This document shows positions 1-31,774 of a stretch of DNA of 32,000 bases, in pieces (position 1 is the stretch's first letter; each line of letters starts with the position of its first letter). Origin of the DNA: an uncultured archaeon. GTDB lineage: Archaea > Iainarchaeota > Iainarchaeia > Iainarchaeales > DATDZZ01. The stretch covers positions 84,207 to 116,206 of the forward strand of contig CAYJVY010000002.1 in the NCBI GenBank assembly GCA_964373795.1. The letters are read 5' to 3'. The notes under the pieces are model-generated. The model searched no databases, had not been told where the DNA came from, and was given only the letters and a program-made list of their open reading frames with translations. The position numbers were made by a program, and so were the translations under genes.

Positions 1-3000
1 CTTCATGCAATAACTGTATTCCTTCATCGTATTTTCCTTGAGCTTCAAGTATTTCATACATATAAGCTCTAACTCCTATTTGTCTTTCATCTGTTTCTGG
101 AAGCAAGCTTAAAGCTTCATTAAGGTAATCCATTGCTAAATTATTTTTCCAACCTTCTTTAGCAATAATTCCTGCTTCAATTAAATAATGCACTAATTGT
201 TCTGGATTGCCTGAAAACCTTGCATGATGAAGCAAGTCTCCAATAACTTCTGCATAAACCTTGTCTTGTTCAAGGCCTGGTTCTACACTCATTACTTTGT
301 TTTCAAATACTTGTAAAGCTTTTTCATGCAATGGAGTTCTTTTTTCACCTTCATACATCATTGAATAAGCAACTTCTTGAGTTAAGTCATGAGCAAAAAT
401 GAAAGGCCTTTCACCGTTTTGAGAAGGCAATTGTTTAATTAATCCTAGTTCTTCAAGGAATACAAGGTTTCTATCCAAATAAGTTCTTTCACTTTCATCT
501 AAAAGTTCTTTCAAAACATTTGCATCAAACTCTCTTCCTAATGCACTTGCAGTTTGAATAGTTTTTTTAGCAGTTGCAAGAAGTCCATCAATTCTTTGAG
601 AAATTGTTGCTTGAATTGTTCCGGGAATTTTTTCCTCCATTTCTTTTAGTTTTACTAAATTAACCTTACACTCTTTTCCTTCTACTTGAATTATTTTTGT
701 ATCTCTTAAAAATCCAAGCATTTGTTCAATGAAATAAGGAACTCCTTTTGCTTTAGAAATATGCGGCACTACTTTTTCAGGAATTTCTATTACTCCTAAA
801 AACTTTTTAGATAAATCTAGTGAAGTTGCTTCATCTAAATTACTTAAATCTAATCTGTTTCCTTCATCTAAAAATCTATGAGTAATTCCAGGTCTTTGAT
901 CTGCCCAAAAAATCACATTAAAGCCTTGCAATTCATCAACTATTTTGGATAAAAAGTTTTCAATTCTTTTATCCATTACATCTCTGTCTTTAACTGCTTC
1001 ATCTTTTGCATAATGCAAGTCCTCTAAACCCAAAACCAATGGAGTTTTCAAAGACCTTGCTTTAACTAAATCAATCAAAGTTGATTGAATTAATTCTACT
1101 CTGGCTTTTGGATCAATGTCTTTTACTTCTTCTAATTCAAATCCTAGTTCATCTAAAACTATTTTAGTTCTCAAGTCAACTAATTTTTCATCCGAATATT
1201 CAGGAGAAATTGGTTCAGTTAAAAGTTCTTTTACTTGTCTTGAAACCTCTGCAATAGCTTCTTCTCTTGATTCTCTACCAGTTAATTTAAAAATATCTCT
1301 TAACCATCCATGCAAAATAGCTGTATTCTTGTCTTTTCCATAAATTGGAATGCTTGAAGTAATTGCATCAAAACCTTGTTCGCGAAGCCTTTTAATTGCT
1401 TCAAATCTAATTCTAGATTTTCCTAGTCCAGCATCTCCCACTACATTGAAAAACCTGTTCTTTCCTGAAACAGGTTGAGCAGTTTTTGCATTAATTAAGT
1501 GTTCTAAAACATGTTTTTCTACTTCACTTAATTCTTCGCTTCTTCCAACAAATTCTGTTGCTTTTTCTCCAAACAAAATATCTAACTTGTTTCTGAGAAC
1601 TTCTCTTTTAACAGTAAAAATATTGATTGGCGCTGAAACTCCTTTATATTTTCTTTGCCCTAATGCTTCAACTTCAAATTCTCCTCCTTTAATTGATCTT
1701 CTAACTCTATCAGAAATAAGAATTTCTCCTTCTCCTGCGCCTTGCATGAAACGAGCAGCAACATTTACTCTGTCTCCGCCTAAATCAGGTTTATTTCCAA
1801 ACCAAGTAATTCCAACTCTTCCAAAATTGATTCCAGAACCTAAACGCAGGTTAACTGTTTCTCCAAATCTTTTTCCAATTGCATTAATTGCTTTATCCAT
1901 TTCCAAAGACAATTGAGTTGCAAAATAAATATCTCTTTCAGTTACTCTATCAGCTCCAAAAGTAATAAAGGCTCCAGTAGCCCCCATTTTTTTAACAAAA
2001 GTTCCTCCACGCTCTGAAGTTAATTCCTCCATTTTACGAAAACACTCTTGCCTTAAAGCCTCTCTTCTAGCTGCAGGCAAACCTTGAACTTGTGAATCAA
2101 AATTTTTTATTGAAGTAAACAACATTGTTGCATGCTTTAATTCTTGTCTAGTAATTCCAAAAGCTGCATGAGCTAATTTCATTCTAACAGTTCCACCAGT
2201 TTTTCCTTTTTCAACAAATTCTCCGATTGGCTTGTCAGTTGCTTCAATCAAAAAATAATGCTTGTCTCCTCCACCCTTTGGATCTCGTAAAGTTATTTCT
2301 CTAAATTTTGCTCCCTCAAATTCATTTGAAAACCTTGCATTAACTAATATTTGCCCTGCTCTTGCAGCACTCTGCAATTTAATTGTATCCTGAATTTGAG
2401 GCCCTAAATGAGTTGAAATTGCGTCAAGTGAATCAATTTTTTTCAAGGTTGCTTCATCTACTTGAATTGCATTAATTCCACTTGAAACACTTAAATCATC
2501 GGTTAATCTTTCACTAATTACTCTGTTTTCTCTTCGCAGAGATTTACTGAATTCAGGTAAAGCTCCTTGAACTGAATACAATGTTTTCAATGCATCAGTC
2601 ATTGAATCAAATAAAGCATAAACAGCATCTCCTTCCCCTAAATAAAACACTCCATGATTTTTATCCACATGACCTAAAACCATTTCCTGAAATTTATTCT
2701 TAATAGTATCCAATTGCTCTACATGTTCTTCTCCAAATCTTTCAGACAAAGCAGTATAACCGGCTAAATCAACTTTAATTATTGCAAGATTAGCTTTTTC
2801 TGGAACCTCAAAAACTCTTTCCCTTGCCGGAGCCACGCCTTTAGGAATTCCTTTTCTTCTTGCCTCCTCTTCTTCTTCTCTTTCCTCAGCTGCAGCTTCT
2901 GCTCGTCTTCTAGCAGCATCTACTGCTTCCTCTTCTTCTGCAGCCCATTCAATAGGAGGAACTTTTTTTCCAGCAACTGCTTCTTCTCCAACAGGAGCTT

Positions 3001-4486
3001 CTCTTACAGGAGCTTCCACTGCTTCTCTTCTCACAGGCTTTGAAGGTTCTACAGAAGGCCTTTCAAATTCAAAATCTTTTTGCAATTCATTGAATGGCTT
3101 TCCAATTGCTTCTCCTAAAACCCTTAAACCATTTCCAAAATCATTTTCATTAAATAATTGTTGTAACACGCTTAGCTTTGAATTGAATTCAATTATTTCT
3201 CCAGTAGACCTAAGAGAAGAAGCCTTTCTCTCCAATGCATTGAAAACCTTTTCCCCAATGAAAACTCTTTCGCCTAGAGAAGTAGAAGAAAATCTTTCCC
3301 GCAATTCCTTTACTTGTTGAACAAATTGTTGAATAAAAGAATCCTTTCTTTTTTCAACCTCTAAAGAAATTGCTTTAAAATCTCTTTCAGTTAAAGAAAT
3401 TTCTCTTTCAACTTCTTTTCTCTTTAAACCAAATTTGTCTTTAAAAAACTTTTTAGTTAATTCAAAAACTTTACTTAAATGAGAAACTACTTTTTCGATT
3501 TTCTTTTTCTTCAAGCCAGCTCTTTTCAAACGCCATCTCCAAAACATTGTTCTAAGCTTTCCAAAAGCCCACCATTTTGCAGCCAAGGCTTTCTGTAATT
3601 TAATTTCAATTTTTAAAAGATTTAAAGAAAGCCTTTCAACCTTGTCTTGAGAATTCAGTAAATCTAATTCAGCTTTTAACACTTTTTCTTCTCTTAAAAC
3701 ATCTAAATCAATTTTTTCAGGCTGAAACTCTTCTCGCTTTTTTCTTTTCTCCTTTAATTCTTCAGCTTTTCTATTAAACTCTGCCAATTCGCTTGCAATA
3801 AATCTAGGTAAAGGTTTTACAATTTTTTTAGGAGAAACAATTTCATCCCTTAAACTAGGAGATTTTAAAGCAAGGCTTCCTTCAACTGCAGGCTGCTCTC
3901 TATGCACTTCAGGAGCTTCAACCCTTACTTCCCCCATGTCCTTAAATACATGTTTTGTAACCTTTGCGGGTTTAAACAAGGGTTCAGGACGTTTTCCTTC
4001 TCCAGGGACTTCTCTTTCTGGTTCTCGTCTTTCAGGCACTTCTCCATGCCCTAAAGGTTCAGATTTTTTAGGAGGTTCTCCAGCAGCAGCAAAAACCCTT
4101 AAACGATTAGTTCCCTCTGTCCATCGAAGATTTTTTGGAAGAGGAATTGCTCTTGCTTCTGCTCCAGTTGTTCCAAGCTTTAAAGCCCTTGCTTTTTGTT
4201 TTTCAGGCTTTAAAGGAGGCTTGCCTGTTCTAGCTTTTTGAATTTGAGATTCAACTTTTTCAAGAACTCTTTTTGCTTGTTCATGTTTTTGCTGCAAGCG
4301 ATTTAATTGAAGTCTAACACTTGTCTTTAAAGACTTTTTTGCTTGCAATTTTTTTCTCTGATTTAAAATTCTTTTCTTTAATTCTTCAACTTTTTTTCTG
4401 CGTTCCATTAATTCTTGAACACGTTTAGCATCTGCATATAAGTGAGAAATATTTGCTTTCCTCATACTCGAAGACCTTCTTAACAT
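1..4486 (-). CDS. Giant multidomain signalling protein with its start in the window and its 3' end off the left edge (at least 1495 aa visible). Order: coiled-coil/low-complexity N-region, two tandem class III nucleotidyl-cyclase homology domains, AAA_16/STAND-type P-loop NTPase, TPR-like C-terminal repeats.
   Basis: My translation of the minus strand from the ATG at 4486-4484 (MLRRSSSMRKANISHLYADAKR...) stays open to base 1. It is absent from the ORF track because no stop lies in the window. Motifs read: IIKVDLAGYTALSERFG and LGEGDAVYALF (cyclase domain 1, about 2794-2250); GGDRVNVAARF (domain 2, about 2133-1610); VVGDAGLGKSR Walker A (1438-1415); LVLGLEDLHYAKDEA; FIFAHDLTQEVAYSMM; then TPR-like helices up to the window edge. 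Confidence 0.8.
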   Translation of the reverse strand, partial: MLRRSSSMRKANISHLYADAKRVQELMERRKKVEELKKRILNQRKKLQAKKSLKTSVRLQLNRLQQKHEQAKRVLEKVESQIQKARTGKPPLKPEKQKARALKLGTTGAEARAIPLPKNLRWTEGTNRLRVFAAAGEPPKKSEPLGHGEVPERREPEREVPGEGKRPEPLFKPAKVTKHVFKDMGEVRVEAPEVHREQPAVEGSLALKSPSLRDEIVSPKKIVKPLPRFIASELAEFNRKAEELKEKRKKREEFQPEKIDLDVLREEKVLKAELDLLNSQDKVERLSLNLLKIEIKLQKALAAKWWAFGKLRTMFWRWRLKRAGLKKKKIEKVVSHLSKVFELTKKFFKDKFGLKRKEVEREISLTERDFKAISLEVEKRKDSFIQQFVQQVKELRERFSSTSLGERVFIGEKVFNALERKASSLRSTGEIIEFNSKLSVLQQLFNENDFGNGLRVLGEAIGKPFNELQKDFEFERPSVEPSKPVRREAVEAPVREAPVGEEAVAGKKVPPIEWAAEEEEAVDAARRRAEAAAEEREEEEEARRKGIPKGVAPARERVFEVPEKANLAIIKVDLAGYTALSERFGEEHVEQLDTIKNKFQEMVLGHVDKNHGVFYLGEGDAVYALFDSMTDALKTLYSVQGALPEFSKSLRRENRVISERLTDDLSVSSGINAIQVDEATLKKIDSLDAISTHLGPQIQDTIKLQSAARAGQILVNARFSNEFEGAKFREITLRDPKGGGDKHYFLIEATDKPIGEFVEKGKTGGTVRMKLAHAAFGITRQELKHATMLFTSIKNFDSQVQGLPAARREALRQECFRKMEELTSERGGTFVKKMGATGAFITFGADRVTERDIYFATQLSLEMDKAINAIGKRFGETVNLRLGSGINFGRVGITWFGNKPDLGGDRVNVAARFMQGAGEGEILISDRVRRSIKGGEFEVEALGQRKYKGVSAPINIFTVKREVLRNKLDILFGEKATEFVGRSEELSEVEKHVLEHLINAKTAQPVSGKNRFFNVVGDAGLGKSRIRFEAIKRLREQGFDAITSSIPIYGKDKNTAILHGWLRDIFKLTGRESREEAIAEVSRQVKELLTEPISPEYSDEKLVDLRTKIVLDELGFELEEVKDIDPKARVELIQSTLIDLVKARSLKTPLVLGLEDLHYAKDEAVKDRDVMDKRIENFLSKIVDELQGFNVIFWADQRPGITHRFLDEGNRLDLSNLDEATSLDLSKKFLGVIEIPEKVVPHISKAKGVPYFIEQMLGFLRDTKIIQVEGKECKVNLVKLKEMEEKIPGTIQATISQRIDGLLATAKKTIQTASALGREFDANVLKELLDESERTYLDRNLVFLEELGLIKQLPSQNGERPFIFAHDLTQEVAYSMMYEGEKRTPLHEKALQVFENKVMSVEPGLEQDKVYAEVIGDLLHHARFSGNPEQLVHYLIEAGIIAKEGWKNNLAMDYLNEALSLLPETDERQIGVRAYMYEILEAQGKYDEGIQLLHE

Positions 4487-5282: not shown

Positions 5283-5356
5283 GGGTGTATAGCTCAGCCT
5301 GGTAGAGCAACGGTCTTATACACCGTGCGTCGGCGGTTCAAATCCGCCTACGCCCA
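5283..5356 (+). tRNA. tRNA-Ile with genomically encoded anticodon TAT (UAU, reads AUA); no encoded CCA.
   Basis: Hand-folded cloverleaf. Acceptor GGGTGTA/TACGCCC (one G-T pair); D arm GCTC-AGCCTGGTA-GAGC; anticodon arm ACGGT-CTTATAC-ACCGT (anticodon TAT, A37); variable loop GCGTC; T arm GGCGG-TTCAAAT-CCGCC; discriminator A. It is GC-rich against the AT-rich flanks. Confidence 0.9.
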
Positions 5357-23320: not shown

Positions 23321-24931
23321 ATGCCTATTTCACTTAAAGAAGAATCTTCAGTTATTGGAAGAACTGCTAAAGATTTGAAAAAATATGGAGAAAAAGGAAC
23401 TGCTTATTTAGGGAAAACAGTTCTATCAGCTGGAGATAATCCAACTCTTGGAAGAAAAGTTTTAGTTGATATTTCCAAACCCCATTTAGTTTTAATTTGC
23501 GGCAAGAGAGGAGGGGGAAAATGTCTTCACGAAGACACTTTAATAACTCTTGACAACGGAGAAGAAATTCCAATCAAAGAACTTGAAAAAAATAATAATA
23601 AAATAATTGCTTTAAATGATAAACTAAAATTAATTCATACGTATAAAACAGAATTTTACAAACGAGAAGTGAATAAATTATTGCAAATAAAGCTGCGAAC
23701 TGGAAAAGAAATAAAGTTAACTCCTGAACACCCTATTTTTACTATTGATGGATGGATTCAAACAGAGGAGTTAAATGTCGGCAGTAGAATTGCAACTCCT
23801 AGAAAAATTAATTTTATTGGAAATGAAGTCCTGGAAGAGTTTAAAGTAGTGCTGCTTGCATACTTAATTGCAGAGGGACATTTAGGAAATAAAAAAGTAT
23901 TGTTTTCAAATCAAGATGAGAAAATTATTCAAGAATTTAAAGAATGTATTAAAAAATTTGATGAAAACCTTGTTGTAAAAAAACACGGCAAAGACTGTTT
24001 TACTGTTGTACAAAAATCCATTAAAAGAAAAATTGATTACGTAGTAAGAAGTGATGGAAGGTTTGCAAAAGGAAGTAAATTTAATAAAAAAAGCGTTACT
24101 GAATGGCTTGAAGCATTTGAACTCTATAACAAGAAATCAGAAAAAAAATTTATTCCAAAAGAAATATTCAAATTAACTAAAAAAGGATTAGCACTATTTT
24201 TGAATAGATATTTTAGCTGTGATGGAACAATTTATTTTGATTCAAATACAAAAACTTACAGAATTAGTGTTTCTTCTGCTTCTGAAATGCTTGCAAGGCA
24301 ATTGCAAAGCCTGCTTTTAAGATTTGAAATGGTTGGAGTTTTAAGAAATAAAAAAAGTAAGTTAAATGGAAAAGAGTTTAAAAGCTTTGAATTAGAGTTA
24401 AAAGGAAAAAATGTTGAAACCTTCATTAAAGAAATTGGATTCTATGGAAAAAAAGAAATTAAACAAAATGAAGCCTTAAAAAAAATAGAAAACATTAAAA
24501 GAAATACAAACATTGACACAATTCCAAGAGAGATATGGAAAACTTACAGGCCAAAAAGTTGGACTGAAATTGGTAAAAAAATTGGCTATGCAATTCCAAA
24601 GAGTTTAAGGGAAAGCATTTATTATTCTCCTTCAAGGCAAAAATTATTGCAAATAGCTAAAGCAGATCATCAAGAAAAAATAGTTGAACTAGCTGAATCA
24701 GATATTTTTTGGGATGAAGTAATTGAAATAAAAGAACTTGAAGGAAAATTTAATGTATATGATATTGTTGTTCCGGAATTCCATAACTTTGTTGCAAATA
24801 ATATAATTGTTCACAATTCTTATTCAATGTCAGTTGTAATGGAGGAATTTTGTTTACAGCCTGCAGAGATTAGGCAAAGAATTTCTGTTATAACAATTGA
24901 TACTGGGGGAATTTTTTGGACTTTAAAATAA
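23321..24931 (+). CDS. HerA/FtsK-superfamily (DUF87-like) P-loop ATPase, N-terminal part. The Walker A motif is interrupted by an intein and the ORF ends at an in-frame TAA.
   Basis: The N-extein ends ...HLVLICGKRGGGK and the C-extein resumes SYSMSVVMEEF..., so splicing would restore GKRGGGKS. The track start at 23300 is TTG; the first ATG is at 23321. Confidence 0.75.
   Translation: MPISLKEESSVIGRTAKDLKKYGEKGTAYLGKTVLSAGDNPTLGRKVLVDISKPHLVLICGKRGGGKCLHEDTLITLDNGEEIPIKELEKNNNKIIALNDKLKLIHTYKTEFYKREVNKLLQIKLRTGKEIKLTPEHPIFTIDGWIQTEELNVGSRIATPRKINFIGNEVLEEFKVVLLAYLIAEGHLGNKKVLFSNQDEKIIQEFKECIKKFDENLVVKKHGKDCFTVVQKSIKRKIDYVVRSDGRFAKGSKFNKKSVTEWLEAFELYNKKSEKKFIPKEIFKLTKKGLALFLNRYFSCDGTIYFDSNTKTYRISVSSASEMLARQLQSLLLRFEMVGVLRNKKSKLNGKEFKSFELELKGKNVETFIKEIGFYGKKEIKQNEALKKIENIKRNTNIDTIPREIWKTYRPKSWTEIGKKIGYAIPKSLRESIYYSPSRQKLLQIAKADHQEKIVELAESDIFWDEVIEIKELEGKFNVYDIVVPEFHNFVANNIIVHNSYSMSVVMEEFCLQPAEIRQRISVITIDTGGIFWTLK
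23522..24817 (+). mobile_element. Intein of 432 aa with a LAGLIDADG homing-endonuclease domain, inserted in the ATPase P-loop.
   Basis: Cys1 context CLHEDTLITLDNG. Block B is LTPEHPIFT. LAGLIDADG-like blocks are LLAYLIAEGHLG and LFLNRYFSCDGTI. The C-terminus reads VYDIVVPEFHNFVANNIIVHN, followed by the +1 Ser. Confidence 0.85.
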
Positions 24932-24991
24932 CCGAACGAGGAAGAAAAAAAATTATTAGCTGATCCTGAGTGGAGGTTAGAGCCTCAAGGA

Positions 24992-26455: not shown

Positions 26456-27451
26456 ATGGCTAAAAAAATTCCAGTAGTAGCAGTAGTTGTTCCAACTACT
26501 GGAGAATTTCCTCAAATAACTGATGCAATTAGAAATGCAGGAAAAGCATTGAAAAGTAAAGGAGTTAAACCATTGTTTATAGTTTCATCCAATAAAAAGT
26601 TATCCGGGGAAAGAATTAAAGCAATTCAAGGCTTAGGAGAGGAAGTGAATTTCTTAGTTATTGAAAATGGAAGAATTGGAAATCAAATGATTGCAGGATT
26701 TGATTTTGCTGTAAACAAATCAGATGTAATTACAATGCTGCCAGATGATTTTGTTTTTGAAGCTCAAGGAATTTATTCAACTGTAAAACCTGTTTTAAAC
26801 GGAAGATATGAATTTGTTAATAGTTGCTGGCATTATAAAGATTCTAGATTTGCTAAAAGCTTTCCAGAACCTCAATACTTGAATGAAGTAACTGTTTCAA
26901 GGCTTGTAACCTTGGCAAATCCCGCTTTTCATCCACGAGATTTAAGATTAATGCCTGCACTAAGACAAGCAGAAAAAGAAGGAAAACTTTTTCAAACATA
27001 TACTGGATTGCTTTCACTTAAATCAAGTGAATGGAGTAAAGTAAAGCAAGCAATGCAAACAGTTTTACAAGGAAAAGAAGAAGAAATAAATGTATGGGCT
27101 TTTGAAATTGCTTTAATGCTTTCAGCTTTTCATGCTAGAAAAAAAGTTGGAGCAGTGCCAGCTAAAAGGCTTTTTGAACACGAATGGCCTTCAGAACAAT
27201 CAATTCAAGCATTAAGAGATAAAAGGCTTTTACAGTTTAGAGTTGCAACTGAAGTAATTAAAACTTTTTTAGAACGAACTAATCAAGCTCATAAAATTCC
27301 TTTACTTGAAGAAATTGTTCGACAAACAATTCGCAGGATTCAAAAAGCCTCTCATCACACTAAAGAAGAAGTATGGAAAAGATTAGAGAGAATGAGAAAA
27401 CAAAAAAAGTTTAGAAAACAATTTCCTAAAATAAGAAAAAAATTAAGATAA
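26456..27451 (+). CDS. GT-A-fold (family-2-like) glycosyltransferase-like protein with a strongly basic C-terminal tail.
   Basis: 331 aa. VVAVVVPTTGE, ENGRIGNQMIAGFDFA and MLPDDF (DxD-like) fit a GT-A layout. The tail is RMRKQKKFRKQFPKIRKKLR. The assignment rests on pattern only. Confidence 0.5.
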   Translation: MAKKIPVVAVVVPTTGEFPQITDAIRNAGKALKSKGVKPLFIVSSNKKLSGERIKAIQGLGEEVNFLVIENGRIGNQMIAGFDFAVNKSDVITMLPDDFVFEAQGIYSTVKPVLNGRYEFVNSCWHYKDSRFAKSFPEPQYLNEVTVSRLVTLANPAFHPRDLRLMPALRQAEKEGKLFQTYTGLLSLKSSEWSKVKQAMQTVLQGKEEEINVWAFEIALMLSAFHARKKVGAVPAKRLFEHEWPSEQSIQALRDKRLLQFRVATEVIKTFLERTNQAHKIPLLEEIVRQTIRRIQKASHHTKEEVWKRLERMRKQKKFRKQFPKIRKKLR

Positions 27452-27529
27452 ATTCAAAAAAAAACTAGACAACATGACATTTATGACAAGTAAAGTTTAT
27501 ATTTTTAAGAATAGTTATTTAGTGGTGTT

Positions 27530-28234
27530 ATGCCTGCTAGAATGAGACAACACGAAAAAATTCACAATTCTCAAGTAGTAATTGGTAGAAGACTTAAGGG
27601 AAATAAAGATCGACTATTAGATAGAGACAGATTAATAGTAAAAGTTGAAATGGAAGGCGCTAACAAAGGCAGATTAGGGGTTTATCTTAAAGAGGAAAAT
27701 AATCTTCACATTACTCATTATGCCGAGGGACCAGATAATTTTCATCTCAAACTTCCTGAACATCAGAGACTTGTTATTCCTAATGCAAGAACTTCTCCTG
27801 AAATGCAGGATGCAATCCATGTAACAAACATTGGGAAACCTCCAAAACATGTCCCTCCAAGAGTAATTTACGATATGTTGAAAGACATGTTTGCTATTGC
27901 AAACAACTTAAGGGCACAAAAAATAATACACACAAATCAATTTGAGTTTGATCCGATTCCTTTGCAAGGCAATTTTGACAACAGATTACTAGAAAATCGT
28001 CAACTAGTTGTTGAAATAACAAATGGAAAATATAAAGGTTATATAGGGGTTTATTCACACAATCGAAGGCACTTGGATATAACACATAAGCCAGTTAATG
28101 TTGAAGGCTTTCACGAAGTCAGCACAGGCCCTGGAGGGGCATTTGGTCCAGTAATTGGCGGAGACGAATTTGTTAACCCACTTCTTATAGGTGCTAGAAT
28201 AATCAAAAACATAAGGCCTTCATCGGCTCCATGA
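27530..28234 (+). CDS. Hypothetical protein with an internal domain duplication; no family recognised.
   Basis: 234 aa. Repeat 1 is DRLIVKVEMEGANKGRLGVYLKEENNLHITHYAEGPDNFH. Repeat 2 is RQLVVEITNGKYKGYIGVYSHNRRHLDITHKPVNVEGFH. The shared pattern is L.V...G..KG..GVY......L.ITH......FH. Confidence 0.6.
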   Translation: MPARMRQHEKIHNSQVVIGRRLKGNKDRLLDRDRLIVKVEMEGANKGRLGVYLKEENNLHITHYAEGPDNFHLKLPEHQRLVIPNARTSPEMQDAIHVTNIGKPPKHVPPRVIYDMLKDMFAIANNLRAQKIIHTNQFEFDPIPLQGNFDNRLLENRQLVVEITNGKYKGYIGVYSHNRRHLDITHKPVNVEGFHEVSTGPGGAFGPVIGGDEFVNPLLIGARIIKNIRPSSAP

Positions 28235-28262: not shown

Positions 28263-28790
28263 TTAAATTTCAAGTTCAATAAAATCTGCGTTTCCTAAAT
28301 TAATTCTTTTTTCTAAAATCATTTCCGTGACAAACCATATAGGCCCAGTATGAGTAACAATGCAAACGCTTTCAAATTCAAGGGAATTCAATAAATCAAT
28401 AAATTTTGAAAGCCTTTGAGTAAAAGATTCAATTGATTCTCCTCCTTCAACTGAGTAATTCCATTCCTTGATTTTTTCAACTATATCTGGATAATGTTTT
28501 TTAGCCCAATCCTTATTCATGCCAGTTAAAAACCCATATTTATTCATTTCCCTTAAATCATCTCTAAACTCTGAAGCCAGCTTTAATTCGTTTCCAATTA
28601 TTTCAGCTGTTTGTTTTGCTCTTTTCAAAGAAGAAGAAAAAATTTTTTGAATTCCTTTTTCACTTAATTTTTTAGCCAAAATTTTTGATTCATTTACTCC
28701 TGCAGAAGTTAATTCATCGTCCGCCCATCCACCAAAAGTGTTATTTAAGTCATCTAATGCTTGTCCATGCCTGCATAAAAAAATCTTCAT
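28263..28790 (-). CDS. Histidine phosphatase superfamily protein (phosphoglycerate-mutase-like / CobC-like).
   Basis: 175 aa. It has the N-terminal IFLCRHGQ (RHG motif) and a downstream VTHTGPI histidine motif. Confidence 0.8.
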   Translation of the reverse strand: MKIFLCRHGQALDDLNNTFGGWADDELTSAGVNESKILAKKLSEKGIQKIFSSSLKRAKQTAEIIGNELKLASEFRDDLREMNKYGFLTGMNKDWAKKHYPDIVEKIKEWNYSVEGGESIESFTQRLSKFIDLLNSLEFESVCIVTHTGPIWFVTEMILEKRINLGNADFIELEI

Positions 28791-28900
28791 TAAATCCCTT
28801 TAAACAGTTAAAAATTAATAAAAACATTGTCAACTGAACCATCTCACACAAGTAGCATGACATATCATCTTTAGATTGCTTCCAGTCTTGCCTGCTTTTG

Positions 28901-29084
28901 ACTCAGCTTCGCCGGCTGCGACGTCTCGTGCGTCGAGCACGAGGGGTCACGTGACCCTTCAGCTGCCGTCTCGCGCGGCAAGCGCAATGCCCATACGAAC
29001 ACTCAGCCTCGCCGGCTGAACGGCGCTTCAAGGGCTGAACCTTGCGCGGCTGAACGGCGCACGCTCGCCACGTGCTCGGCGAAG
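28901..29084. other. Non-coding GC-rich island (about 65% G+C) with internal repeats and multiple hairpins; candidate structured RNA or protein-binding element. Strand unknown.
   Basis: The 18-mer ACTCAGC(T/C)TCGCCGGCTG occurs at 28901 and 29001. The 14-bp palindrome GGGTCACGTGACCC is at 28944-28957, and a second CACGTG is at 29069-29074. The hairpin CTCGTGC-GTCGA-GCACGAG is at 28925-28943. Three hairpins carry the loop GCTGAA, at 29010-29025, 29029-29044 and 29043-29061. No start-containing ORF is present. Confidence 0.45.
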
Positions 29085-29783
29085 TTAGAATTCTTTTAGT
29101 TTTGCATCTAATAGTTTTCCTAAGCGATCAGTTTTTTTAATTAAATCAGGAGAAGACTTAATTGATAATTCTTTCAAGTTTTTGAATTCAATTCTTGTAT
29201 GAGGGGAATCAATTACAAATTCTTGAGGTTTTGCAGTTCTTAAAACATAGTGTAATACTTTTGAAAGCTTTGAAGTTGAAACCTTTAAATAACTGGGAGA
29301 AATTTTTTCTGTTCCAGTTTTTTCAGCTGTTTCTTTTAAGTCTAATACTCCAATCATTTTTGGGCCGAAAAAAACTTCTTTGGTTTTTTGGTCTTTTAAA
29401 ACTGCAATTAAAAAATCTAAAGCATTTTCTTCTTTTTGAAATACATAAGTTGCTTCAGTTCTAAAAGAATCTAAAAACAAGTCAGCTCTAAAACTTGGTT
29501 CTTCAAATCTTTTAATTGTTTTCTTTAAGTTACTTAAATTTGATTCAAGCACTTTAAAATTTGAAATAATGGATGAGTTAGAAATTTCTTTTTTAAAAGT
29601 GTTTGAAAGAGTTGGATGTGATTCAGTTAATTCTTCTAATAAAGAAGTTTTTTCTTGAATGTCTTTTAATGAATTACTTAACTCATTTAAATCATGCAAT
29701 AAAGAATTAGTTTTATATAATTTTTTTTCTAAATCAGTTAATGAATGAGTTAAAACTATTTGTTCTTTTTTCTTTTCCTCCAA
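29085..29783 (-). CDS. Hypothetical coiled-coil protein; TTG start.
   Basis: 232-aa ORF. GGGGGT lies 6 nt upstream of the TTG at 29783. The N-terminal half is Ser/Leu/Glu-rich and helical. No family recognised. Confidence 0.55.
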   Translation of the reverse strand: MEEKKKEQIVLTHSLTDLEKKLYKTNSLLHDLNELSNSLKDIQEKTSLLEELTESHPTLSNTFKKEISNSSIISNFKVLESNLSNLKKTIKRFEEPSFRADLFLDSFRTEATYVFQKEENALDFLIAVLKDQKTKEVFFGPKMIGVLDLKETAEKTGTEKISPSYLKVSTSKLSKVLHYVLRTAKPQEFVIDSPHTRIEFKNLKELSIKSSPDLIKKTDRLGKLLDAKLKEF

Positions 29784-29876
29784 AATACAACCCCCTTTAA
29801 CCCCATTATATTGTATCTTTTCTTTATAAAAATCTTTTCATTAACTAATCCTTAATAAAAGTGTTGAGCGAAAAAA

Positions 29877-30332
29877 ATGGATAAAGAAAAAAAATTGCTT
29901 TACTTAGTTGCGTTTGCATTTATTGTATTGCTTGTATTAAGTGTTTTACAATTAATTGGGCAAAGAGTTCCAAATGAATTCACTGAAGCATTTCTTGAAA
30001 GAAATTCCTTGCCTGAAAAAGTAAAAGCAGGAGAAGAATTTACTATTAACATGTTTTTAACAAACAATCAAATTCAAGACTTAAACTTTGAATTCTTTGT
30101 AGTAGAAGGAGAGCTAGCAAATGATGTAAATACATTAATAGTAAGAGAAACAGGCTTAATTAATGCAAACATTATTTTGAAAGGAAAAGAAAAAATCAAG
30201 AAAAAAGAAATGAAAAAGATTCCTTTAAAATTAAAAATAACTTCACCTGGAGAAAAAAAGGTTGAAGTAAAATTCAAGCATGAAAAAGAATATTACTTTC
30301 ATTCACTGTATTTTTGGACATTAGTTGAATGA
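29877..30332 (+). CDS. Membrane-anchored small protein with a probable beta-sandwich ectodomain, function unknown.
   Basis: 151-aa ORF with an N-terminal TM (LLYLVAFAFIVLLVLSVLQLI). Its 3' end overlaps the convergent gene by 34 nt. Confidence 0.5.
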   Translation: MDKEKKLLYLVAFAFIVLLVLSVLQLIGQRVPNEFTEAFLERNSLPEKVKAGEEFTINMFLTNNQIQDLNFEFFVVEGELANDVNTLIVRETGLINANIILKGKEKIKKKEMKKIPLKLKITSPGEKKVEVKFKHEKEYYFHSLYFWTLVE

Positions 30333-31774
30333 GTTTCTAAAACCCTTGTTTCAACATCTCCACATAAAATTCCGCCATAACCTATTACTCCAAAAAAACA
30401 ATTAGCATAATAATTCAAACTGTAAACTTTGTTGAATGCAGGAACAAATTTATAGTTTGGAGATCTAAAAGCATCGTCTTCAAAGTTTAAAATTAAAAAT
30501 TGTGCATTAGAGTCTTTTAAAAACATGTAATCGCTTGAATTTAAATCTTTTTTTTGCAAAAACTGTAATCCTTGCACTGAAAACTTGTCAGTGAAAGCCT
30601 CTAAAGGCAATCCAGTTAGAGTTTTATTTCCTAGATTAGAGTAAAGTCCTAAGCCTTCATTAAATGCTGGTTCAGCTAAAATCATTCCTTGAACGTTTTG
30701 AGATTCAAGCCAGTTAATTGCTCTTAAATCGTTTAAAGTGATTTTTGCAAAACTAGAAGTAAAATCAACATTTATTACAGAGAAAAATAAAAACAATCCA
30801 AAAAAAACAATTAATCCAAAAAAAACCCAGAACTTGTTAAACAATTCATTTTTTTTAAACAATACAAGCAATGAAACTATTCCTACACTTAAAAATTTTG
30901 GTTGCTCCCAAGGTCTAAGCAATCCACTTAAAAAAAAAGCAATTGAAGCAAAAAAAGAAATCAATGAAAAAATAAACCAATAAATTTGAGTTCTAGTGCG
31001 CAAATCAAATAAAGATAAAATTATTAGAGGCAAAACGAAAACAATGATTTGAAAAGCCATTACAGGCAAGTAATTAGAAAAATTAATTGCAACAAAGTCT
31101 GCTCCAGAAATTGTTCCAACTGCATTTAATTTAACTCCATTAAATACAAAAAGCCATACAAGTAATAGAACTGCAAAAAAGGGAATGAAGGTTTTCCAAA
31201 ACTTTTTTTCTTTAAAAAACGCAATTAAAAAAGGCAAGGAAAACATTATAAAAGCCAAGTAATTCCAAAACAAATTCAAGGAAAGCAAAAGAGAAGCAAT
31301 TCTCCATTTATCTTTTAAAGCTAAAACTAAGATTAATGGAAAAACAAAGAAAACAAAAACTTCAGGGCTTTGAGAAGCAGCAGAAATAATTGTAGGCAAA
31401 AAAGTAATTAACAGAGCTCCAACTAGTGATTCAAGTACTCCAACAAATCTTCTAAACAAGAGAAAAAAAGTAACAGCATTTAAGGAACTTAAAAAAGGCA
31501 AGAAAAATAATGCCAAAAGCCAAGAAGAAAAACCTGTAAAAACACTCATTGAAGCAATAATTGAATGATAGAAAGGAGGATAAGTATAAGGAATTAAAGG
31601 ATTATCTGGATCAAATTCAGGAATAAAACCTGTTACAGTAATGTTTTGTGCAAGTTTAATATGATAATTTGAATCATAATACAAAGGCATTTGAAACATT
31701 AAAATAGGAAGAAAGCGTAAAATAAGTGAAATAAAAAAAATCAATAACAAAATTAATTTTTCAGTTTTATTCAT
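30299..31774 (-). CDS. Polytopic membrane protein, GT-C-fold glycosyltransferase-like (ArnT/PMT/STT3-like N-terminal pattern).
   Basis: 491 aa with 10 or more TM segments. Its first-loop motif, LYYDSNYHIKLAQNI...YPPFYH, resembles the GT-C acidic-loop pattern. No WWDYG motif is seen, so I do not call it AglB. Confidence 0.5.
   Translation of the reverse strand: MNKTEKLILLLIFFISLILRFLPILMFQMPLYYDSNYHIKLAQNITVTGFIPEFDPDNPLIPYTYPPFYHSIIASMSVFTGFSSWLLALFFLPFLSSLNAVTFFLLFRRFVGVLESLVGALLITFLPTIISAASQSPEVFVFFVFPLILVLALKDKWRIASLLLSLNLFWNYLAFIMFSLPFLIAFFKEKKFWKTFIPFFAVLLLVWLFVFNGVKLNAVGTISGADFVAINFSNYLPVMAFQIIVFVLPLIILSLFDLRTRTQIYWFIFSLISFFASIAFFLSGLLRPWEQPKFLSVGIVSLLVLFKKNELFNKFWVFFGLIVFFGLFLFFSVINVDFTSSFAKITLNDLRAINWLESQNVQGMILAEPAFNEGLGLYSNLGNKTLTGLPLEAFTDKFSVQGLQFLQKKDLNSSDYMFLKDSNAQFLILNFEDDAFRSPNYKFVPAFNKVYSLNYYANCFFGVIGYGGILCGDVETRVLETHSTNVQKYSE

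Follow-up and report, generated by a model that had tools for sequence, protein, structure and literature searches.

In this study, we examined a 32,000-nucleotide (nt) stretch of DNA from an uncultured archaeon (contig CAYJVY010000002.1; referred to as the window, with positions counted from its first base) and describe within it a compact island, rich in guanine plus cytosine (G+C), that directly follows the stop codon of a minus-strand gene for a protein of 232 amino acids (aa). The island is non-coding, its repeats and hairpins are arranged non-randomly, far beyond chance, and it is bracketed by an inverted repeat predicted to close it into a single domain. We read it, with a probability of roughly 0.35, as a structured RNA domain on the minus strand, situated in the 3′ untranslated region (UTR) of the 232-aa gene or in an intercistronic spacer, and an inert insertion remains a serious alternative. 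The island itself is real and statistically striking but could not be placed; it is an orphan, either a candidate structured RNA or a palindromic element, of a known general kind but of no known family.

Composition, coding status and assembly support

The core of the island comprises 184 nt with a G+C content of 67.4% (65.7% when counted over 28884-29084), as compared to 30.9% for the 32-kb window, which agrees with the original prediction of an island of about 65% in DNA of about 30%. Among all 150-nt sliding windows (mean 30.9%, standard deviation 5.4), the richest is found at 28910-29059 with 68% G+C, 7 standard deviations above the mean; the runner-up reaches 49% and lies within a coding region, leaving the island as the only such block. 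As had also been claimed, the core is richer in G+C than the tRNA-Ile gene of the same window (58.1%). On the minus strand, its first base adjoins the TAA stop codon (29087-29085) of the 232-aa open reading frame (ORF), in line with the predicted start immediately after that stop, and its other end lies approximately 110 nt upstream of a minus-strand gene of the histidine-phosphatase family (His_Phos).

The original prediction held that no start-containing ORF is present. This is not strictly so, since short ORFs of 42-47 aa beginning with GTG or TTG can be found, but the underlying claim stands and the island is non-coding. Stop codons occur in all six frames, G+C by codon phase (0.73, 0.64 and 0.66) carries no period-3 signal, a concatenated six-frame translation had no protein match at E up to 10 among 5.8 billion protein clusters, and the short ORFs were absent from the protein collection searched. 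A relic of a G+C-rich protein gene is ruled out by the same stops, lack of period-3 G+C and lack of protein similarity, and an intron or read-through region is ruled out as the reading frame is not continuous across the island. That a 184-nt block should have 67% G+C without being constrained by coding points to its having either arrived recently or been selected for structure. As neutral DNA in a 31% G+C setting should drift towards AT, such a block would appear to be maintained rather than decaying.

As an independent check of the assembly, we used Logan contigs (L001, L002 and L003) from the short-read runs ERR3478686 and ERR4904391. In contigs of both runs, the 232-aa gene is followed by 51 and 60 nt of island that are 100% identical to the window, while a third contig (L003, from ERR3478686) starts 30 nt inside the other island end and continues into the His_Phos gene. 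The recurrence of both junctions in independently sequenced runs excludes a one-off chimeric junction, which answers the concern over a chimeric insertion in the original prediction as far as the junctions go. All contig limits fall inside the island (L001 ends at 29034, L002 at 29025, and L003 starts at 28930), leaving some 95-105 nt unassembled. Of the three hairpins discussed below, the third is covered by L001 and L002, the second by L002 and partly by L001, and the first by position 29025 alone, where L002 ends. The differing stop points would be explained more easily by a drop in coverage over a G+C-rich hairpin block than by a repeat boundary at a fixed place; coverage loss is thus the likely cause of the breaks, with population heterogeneity or extra copies as possible alternatives. 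That the central part is an assembly artefact or chimera might be argued from its presence (28931-29024) in the window's assembly alone, given that contigs of both runs stop inside the island. This explanation is barely plausible: both junctions, together with 60 and 30 nt of island, are reproduced at 100% identity in two different runs, and the two island ends pair as one closing helix, which would be unexpected of a chimera.

Repeats, palindromes and predicted folding

The elements listed in the original prediction were located, several with corrections. The two 18-mers, 100 bp apart, are identical at 17 of 18 bases, and the second copy is a hairpin in itself (TCAGCC/GGCTGA; -9.5 / -10.6 kcal/mol) that rivals hairpin 1; a 14-mer, CGGCTGAACGGCGC, is also present twice. 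The 14-bp palindrome was found as described, as was the second CACGTG (at 29069), and the island contains 7 palindromic hexamers. Also present are the two mutually exclusive hairpins (28925-31/28937-43 versus 28919-23/28931-35), and the long-range pairing extends further than proposed, to a 14-nt complementarity between 28931-44 and 29068-81. The three GCTGAA hairpins exist, the first two being perfect with a 5-bp stem and a 6-nt loop each. The third has a bulged G and overlaps the second by 1-2 bases, so the three cannot all be fully formed together.

Such an arrangement is well outside chance expectation. The 8-mer GGCTGAAC occurs three times in 42 nt (at 29014, 29033 and 29048), each time between different short stems, and nowhere else in the 32 kb (0.42 copies expected); three copies were reached in 0 of 100 shuffles. 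The 18-mer likewise has no further copy in the window. Two or more perfect hairpins with a common hexaloop arose in 2 of 5000 dinucleotide shuffles of the island, and 2.17 Mb of unrelated DNA contained one other such pair. A whole-unit tandem duplication is ruled out, because the halves align at the 18-mer only, and Tandem Repeats Finder identified no tandem array in the island.

Besides the forward copies of GCTGAR that form the predicted loops (29015, 29034 and 29049), we found three reverse copies (28902, 28958 and 29002) that the original prediction had overlooked. Six of the 29 GCTGAR sites in the window thus fall within 153 nt of island, as two opposed triplets, and each GCTGAA loop has a complement inside the island. 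Such a cluster, along with the two CACGTG sites, the perfect palindrome and the palindromic hexamers, could be taken for a DNA-level element, in which protein-binding sites would serve regulation, recombination or replication. We consider this highly unlikely, as the GCTGAR sites are not spaced with a helical period (56, 44, 13, 19 and 15 bp), the vicinity has no integrase, Orc/Cdc6 or replication gene, there is no skew turn at the site, and binding sites do not need 67% G+C across 184 bp.

A further feature that had escaped notice is a perfect 8-bp inverted repeat, CTTCGCCG/CGGCGAAG (28907-14 / 29077-84), which brackets the island exactly and extends to 10 bp on the plus strand. In partition-function folding, this closing helix has a pairing probability (P) of 0.99-1.0 on both strands. 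The minus strand folds at -101.2 kcal/mol (z -2.79), with 0 of 200 shuffles as stable, and the plus strand at -93.5 kcal/mol (z -1.80), with 7 of 200 as stable. The predicted minus-strand ensemble is mostly a closed multiloop with three arms (29072-45, 29035-28954 and 28950-18), whose high-probability helices include at least seven G·U pairs that correspond to A·C mismatches on the plus strand. Hairpins 1, 2 and 3 each have P no higher than 0.5 in this ensemble (hairpin 1 below 0.5). In the plus-strand ensemble, hairpin 1 alone persists (P 0.87), and the loop sequences of hairpins 2 and 3 pair with 29003-09 and 28959-64. Long-range helices displace hairpin 2 on both strands, and the row of three hairpins forms when the right-hand part of the island folds on its own. 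As modelled, therefore, the island is better described as a closed domain in which two pairing regimes compete than simply as three hairpins. The original prediction had interpreted an invariant hexaloop on varying stems as a recognition module; this may hold for one possible conformation, but only hairpin 1 survives in the full-length fold, on the plus strand only, and the other GCTGAA/UUCAGC copies are predicted to lie in long-range helices with their reverse complements on either strand.

Table 1 Coordinates of the island, its internal features and its flanks
Feature	Position	Strand	Basis or remark
G+C-rich non-coding island (core)	28901-29084	- (proposed RNA sense)	Composition, no open frame, better minus-strand folding
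Closing helix, left arm AGCTTCGCCG	28905-28914		Pairs with 29077-29086; inverted repeat; 8 perfect pairs 28907-14/29077-84
Closing helix, right arm CGGCGAAGTT	29077-29086		Abuts/overlaps TAA stop 29085-29087
18-mer copy A ACTCAGCTTCGCCGGCTG	28901-28918		Holds reverse GCTGAG copy 28902-07
18-mer copy B ACTCAGCCTCGCCGGCTG	29001-29018		Holds reverse GCTGAG copy 29002-07
Perfect 7-bp hairpin CTCGTGC / GTCGA / GCACGAG	28925-28943		P 0.99 (-), 0.65 (+); -13.0 / -11.8 kcal/mol
14-bp palindrome GGGTCACGTGACCC, then reverse GCTGAA copy (TTCAGC, 28958-63)	28944-28963 (palindrome 28944-57)		
Hairpin 1, CGCCG / GCTGAA / CGGCG	29010-29025		Alone -9.1 (+), -8.4 (-) kcal/mol
Hairpin 2, CAAGG / GCTGAA / CCTTG	29029-29044		Alone -6.0 / -5.3 kcal/mol
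Hairpin 3, (T)GCGCG / GCTGAA / CG(G)CGC(A), bulged G	29043-29061		Alone -8.3 / -7.7 kcal/mol
Upstream 232-aa ORF, orphan	29085-29783	-	Stop codon abuts island
AT-rich spacer between island and His_Phos gene	28791-28900	-	First T-runs downstream of island; T5 starts at 28824
Downstream 175-aa histidine-phosphatase-family gene	28263-28790	-	PF00300, E 1e-33

A proposed minus-strand RNA domain and its competitors

For the RNA sense, the minus strand is favoured by its lower folding energy and z-score, by the at least seven G·U pairs available only there, and by its excess of G over C (66 versus 58). It should also be transcribed, since both flanking genes lie on this strand and no run of four or five T residues (T4 or T5) occurs from the stop at 29085 to position 28824. 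This tail of 260 nt is the longest T4-free one among 24 genes, and with no terminator signal before the island, a polymerase transcribing the 232-aa ORF should read through it.

In the mechanism that we propose, the island would be maintained by selection and transcribed together with the 232-aa gene, either forming its 3′ UTR or separating the two cistrons of a bicistronic 232-aa/His_Phos message. A helix of 8-10 bp, beginning at the base after the stop codon, would close the domain; that it pairs in the models with P of about 1.0 and brackets the G+C-rich block exactly likewise suggests an island that is maintained. One fold state would be the compact three-arm structure, the other a co-transcriptional row of small hairpins displaying UUCAGC loops, with the right half made first, and the three UUCAGC and three complementary GCUGAR copies would allow exchange between them. 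The 5′ arm of the closing helix directly follows the UAA, and a ribosome terminating there would therefore cover this arm and hold the domain open, so that translation of the ORF should open it. Such a stable 3′ structure may block 3′-to-5′ decay and thereby stabilise the upstream message; alternatively, it may be released and survive as a stable small RNA derived from the 3′ UTR, and it might additionally offer a platform for some binding partner. In a more specific variant, the island would be a lineage-specific RNA switch of an AT-rich (probably DPANN-type) archaeon, in which three UUCAGC/GCUGAA hairpin loops would offer multivalent docking to a protein or RNA, could instead be sequestered by the three internal complements, and would lie within a closing helix opened by the terminating ribosome. 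This would make it an archaeal functional analogue of ANTAR targets or CsrB with no sequence relationship to either. We regard this variant as rather improbable.

Several observations weigh against a minus-strand RNA domain. The z-scores for folding are no more than modest, and stable folding is in any case a property of G+C-rich sequence. A G+C content of 67% exceeds that of the organism's own tRNA (58%) and goes beyond the apparent need of a mesophile-like RNA, while the asymmetries that decide the strand are weak. No homologue of the island was found in any collection searched, and the upstream 232-aa gene is an orphan of uncertain reality. Finally, contigs of both short-read runs break inside the island, whose centre is confined to one assembly.

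Alternatively, the plus strand could carry a separate gene for a small RNA, antisense to both neighbours, in which up to three GCUGAA hexaloops would form a recognition platform. On this strand, hairpin 1 is well populated, as given above, and the helix 28931-44/29068-81 contains a U·G pair that is valid here only. A TATA-like TTTAGAT (28870-76) is situated about 25-30 nt upstream of 28901, T4 runs follow the island at 29094 and 29100, and the loops carry G at position 4, as do hexaloops bound by ANTAR proteins (PMC8934654). Nevertheless, the folding z-score is the weaker of the two strands, hairpins 2 and 3 are displaced in the ensemble, and the TATA-like element is a poor match in a flank that is AT-rich throughout. 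Neither a partner protein nor a downstream plus-strand gene to regulate was found in the window, and we consider a plus-strand RNA gene of this kind unlikely.

Searches for relatives of the island were performed as DNA pattern scans that required exact motifs, and which therefore exclude close copies among the matches listed but not diverged relatives. Among the matches listed for the three-loop pattern in 185,579 species-representative genomes and in the viral contigs of IMG/VR, we found only tandem coding repeats, and filtering these matches for hairpins and an AT-rich context left none that was island-like. The 18-mer gave at least two chance matches in viral contigs, inside a coding region of about 50% G+C. 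In JGI metagenomes, ACTCAGC combined with two loops gave at least 23 matches, all of them tandem repeats or G+C-rich coding DNA. By blastn, the island had no match in a phage collection and one 44-nt match (E 0.05) among plasmids. The source lineage is very sparsely sampled.

The main competitor is a palindromic DNA element, selfish or foreign and comparable to REP/BIME arrays, MITEs or the G+C clusters of mitochondrial DNA, that would have settled after the stop codon and have no dedicated cellular function. The position directly after a stop codon and between co-directional genes is the classic one of REP/BIME elements. The island likewise consists of short imperfect palindromes in both orientations, with its three forward and three reverse GCTGAR copies, seven palindromic hexamers and 8-bp terminal inverted repeat; in composition it is foreign to the genome, the searches gave neither a homologue nor a known RNA family, and the short-read contigs break inside it, as they would at repeats. 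Yet it is present as a single copy in 32 kb, with GGCTGAAC found nowhere else in the window, and the bases flanking its terminal repeat (..GACTCAG / TTAGAAT..) are not duplicated, leaving no target-site duplication. No transposase or RAYT-like gene occurs among the 35 window proteins and the 2 short ORFs of L003, and, by the patterns tried and among the matches listed, no comparable element turned up in phages, plasmids, viral contigs, species-representative genomes or JGI metagenomes. The break points also differ between runs (29034 versus 29025), a better fit to coverage loss. On balance we hold such an element to be possible, though doubtful.

Comparison with known RNA families and elements

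Tests against known families leave the island unassigned, in agreement with the original prediction, which had seen no tRNA, 5S, signal recognition particle (SRP), RNase P, C/D-box or riboswitch signature. None of the 4227 models of Rfam 15 matched it at the gathering threshold, and none scored better than E 0.33, the best being chrB-a with 18.5 bits (43.9 required; E 0.33-0.88). SRP, RNase P, 5S, the cobalamin riboswitch and ribozymes were rejected for want of an Rfam model match, and no tRNA or tmRNA was identified in the island by ARAGORN or by the tRNA covariance model. The G-UUCAGC-C loops resemble a T-arm in UUCA alone, having a 6-nt instead of a 7-nt loop and G in place of A58. With regard to archaeal C/D box small RNAs, in which a C box (RUGAUGA) and a D box (CUGA) combine into a k-turn, neither TGATGA nor TGATG occurs on either strand of 28880-29100, and CUGA occurs three times per strand. 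For H/ACA small RNAs, which have an ACA box behind a hairpin with a pseudouridylation pocket and a k-turn or k-loop, ACA is absent from the minus strand and present once on the plus strand (28999), and no H/ACA model match was significant. No tandem GA/AG signature of a k-turn is present in the island hairpins, and no bacterial-type terminator or promoter in 28600-29400. A type III toxin-antitoxin RNA (ToxI-like, with head-to-tail direct repeats of about 36 nt preceding the gene of an endoribonuclease toxin) was rejected, as there are no tandem repeats and the neighbouring proteins have no PADLOC match.

The same searches apply to a 5′ leader or riboswitch-like regulator of the His_Phos gene on the minus strand. 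The island lies about 110 nt upstream of this gene, on the same strand and at a size typical of riboswitch aptamers, it contains mutually exclusive pairings, and the gene is weakly similar to alpha-ribazole phosphatase (CobC). This similarity, however, falls under the curated cut-off for CobC, and no riboswitch model, cobalamin or other, matched the island at E up to 10. Moreover, between the island and the start codon lies an AT-rich stretch with T-runs and a TATA-like sequence, an indication that the His_Phos gene has a promoter of its own. A leader of this kind thus seems very improbable.

Klein, Misulovin and Eddy (2002) are said to have used base composition to screen AT-rich hyperthermophilic archaea. 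G+C-rich intergenic regions of AT-rich genomes, on which the GC-IGR pipeline is based, have been found to be enriched for structured RNAs (PMC6429828, PMC11109978). As an isolated, strongly G+C-enriched, non-coding intergenic block, the island presents exactly the signal of such screens, but their candidates need conservation across genomes as well as covariation, whereas the island is a singleton with a G+C content above that of its own tRNA.

Sponge RNAs of the CsrB/RsmZ type present one loop motif (GGA) on several unrelated stems within an RNA of 100-350 nt. The island shares this multi-hairpin logic but not the motif (GCUGAA/UUCAGC versus GGA), the RsmY model scored 8.8 bits (E 5.1) against it, and we know of no CsrA in archaea. 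A closer resemblance is seen to the dual-hexaloop RNAs recognised by ANTAR proteins, which consist of two hexaloop hairpins in tandem, the first loop base being A and the fourth G, and which include the targets of EutV, AmiR, NasR and GnfR as well as the EutX/Rli55 sponge (PMC8934654). The island is similar in its tandem short hairpins, with the same kind of hexaloop on different stems, in that one hairpin excludes an alternative structure, and in the G at loop position 4 on the plus strand. It differs in its loops overall (GCUGAA on the plus strand, with G1 and G4; UUCAGC on the minus strand, with U1 and A4), in having three hairpins instead of two, and in lacking an overlapping intrinsic terminator; to our knowledge, hairpin-dependent termination is not used in archaea, to which its host belongs. 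Neither an ANTAR domain nor an integrase or a known RNA-binding protein was identified among the 35 window proteins and 2 short L003 ORFs, and no plus-strand gene follows downstream. The resemblance is therefore at most a functional analogy.

Among DNA elements, bacterial REP/BIME sequences and REPINs occur in tens to hundreds of copies, travel with RAYT transposases and can stabilise the upstream mRNA. The island resembles them in its G+C-rich imperfect palindromes of alternating orientation and in its place right after a stop codon between co-directional genes, but differs in being single in 32 kb, with no RAYT and, among the matches listed, no counterpart elsewhere. The G+C clusters and double-hairpin elements of AT-rich fungal (yeast) mitochondrial genomes are likewise short, G+C-rich palindromic islands in AT-rich spacers. 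They are, however, organellar, multi-copy and 30-60 bp in size, in contrast to a single 184-bp composite on an archaeal chromosome.

Should the island be a functional RNA, a little-known archaeal lineage, of a sort for which few regulatory RNAs have been described, would gain an unclassified structured RNA, and the island would constitute a compact natural case of one loop motif on several stems competing with internal complements. It could equally be an inert palindromic insertion. As a single locus without relatives, its function cannot be inferred by comparison, and its practical value is limited at present. For composition-based screens it carries a caution, namely that a striking G+C island can be entirely unplaceable.

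Neighbouring genes and other features of the window

The 232-aa protein matches itself alone among the 5.8 billion protein clusters and belongs to none of the families of Pfam, PHROG, NCBIfam or PADLOC, and its structure prediction was not usable (AlphaFold pLDDT 52). Further proteins without a family in these collections are those of 331, 234 and 151 aa and a multi-pass membrane protein of 491 aa. Such genes run over 26456-28234 and 29085-31774, placing the island within a lineage-specific patch beside ParE and PIN toxin genes. The nearest relatives of the His_Phos protein share no more than 50% identity with it and lie outside any syntenic setting, being found in bacterial Mur-ligase operons or in unrelated archaeal contexts.

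Mirrored outside the island ends is the hexamer TTAGAT, followed by GC or TGC, at 28870-28876 and 29106-29111. The first precedes the 18-mer at 28901 by 25 nt and the closing helix at 28907 by 31 nt, and the second lies 22 nt past 29084. They might act as a weak TATA-like element on either strand, or could have arisen by chance in AT-rich DNA.

The only gathering-level Rfam match in the window, and the sole RNA gene detected in it, is the tRNA-Ile at 5283-5356 (67 bits), whose anticodon TAT (UAU) represents a rare mode of reading AUA. At the left end, a minus-strand ORF of more than 1495 aa (2-4486) runs off the window; it encodes an adenylate/guanylate cyclase catalytic domain (E 3e-17) and, after it, a STAND-type ATPase (AAA_16). 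Such a signalling protein is unusual in a small, AT-rich genome of an archaeon, and the ORF accounts for mild G+C bumps at 2800-3000 and 4000-4200.

The host is an archaeon of 31% G+C, and its genes in the window include one for deoxyhypusine synthase and an intein that has a LAGLIDADG domain. A gene for a HerA/DUF87-like ATPase with an intein (Intein_splicing and LAGLIDADG) is split in the window by an in-frame TAA (24929-24931), and the same gene forms one intact ORF of 866 aa in L003 (3010-5610). Over 5.7 kb, all 17 differences between L003 and the window are located in a 106-nt tract (24883-24988) just past the C-terminal junction of the intein, which could reflect strain-level recombination, a pseudogene allele or a local consensus error.

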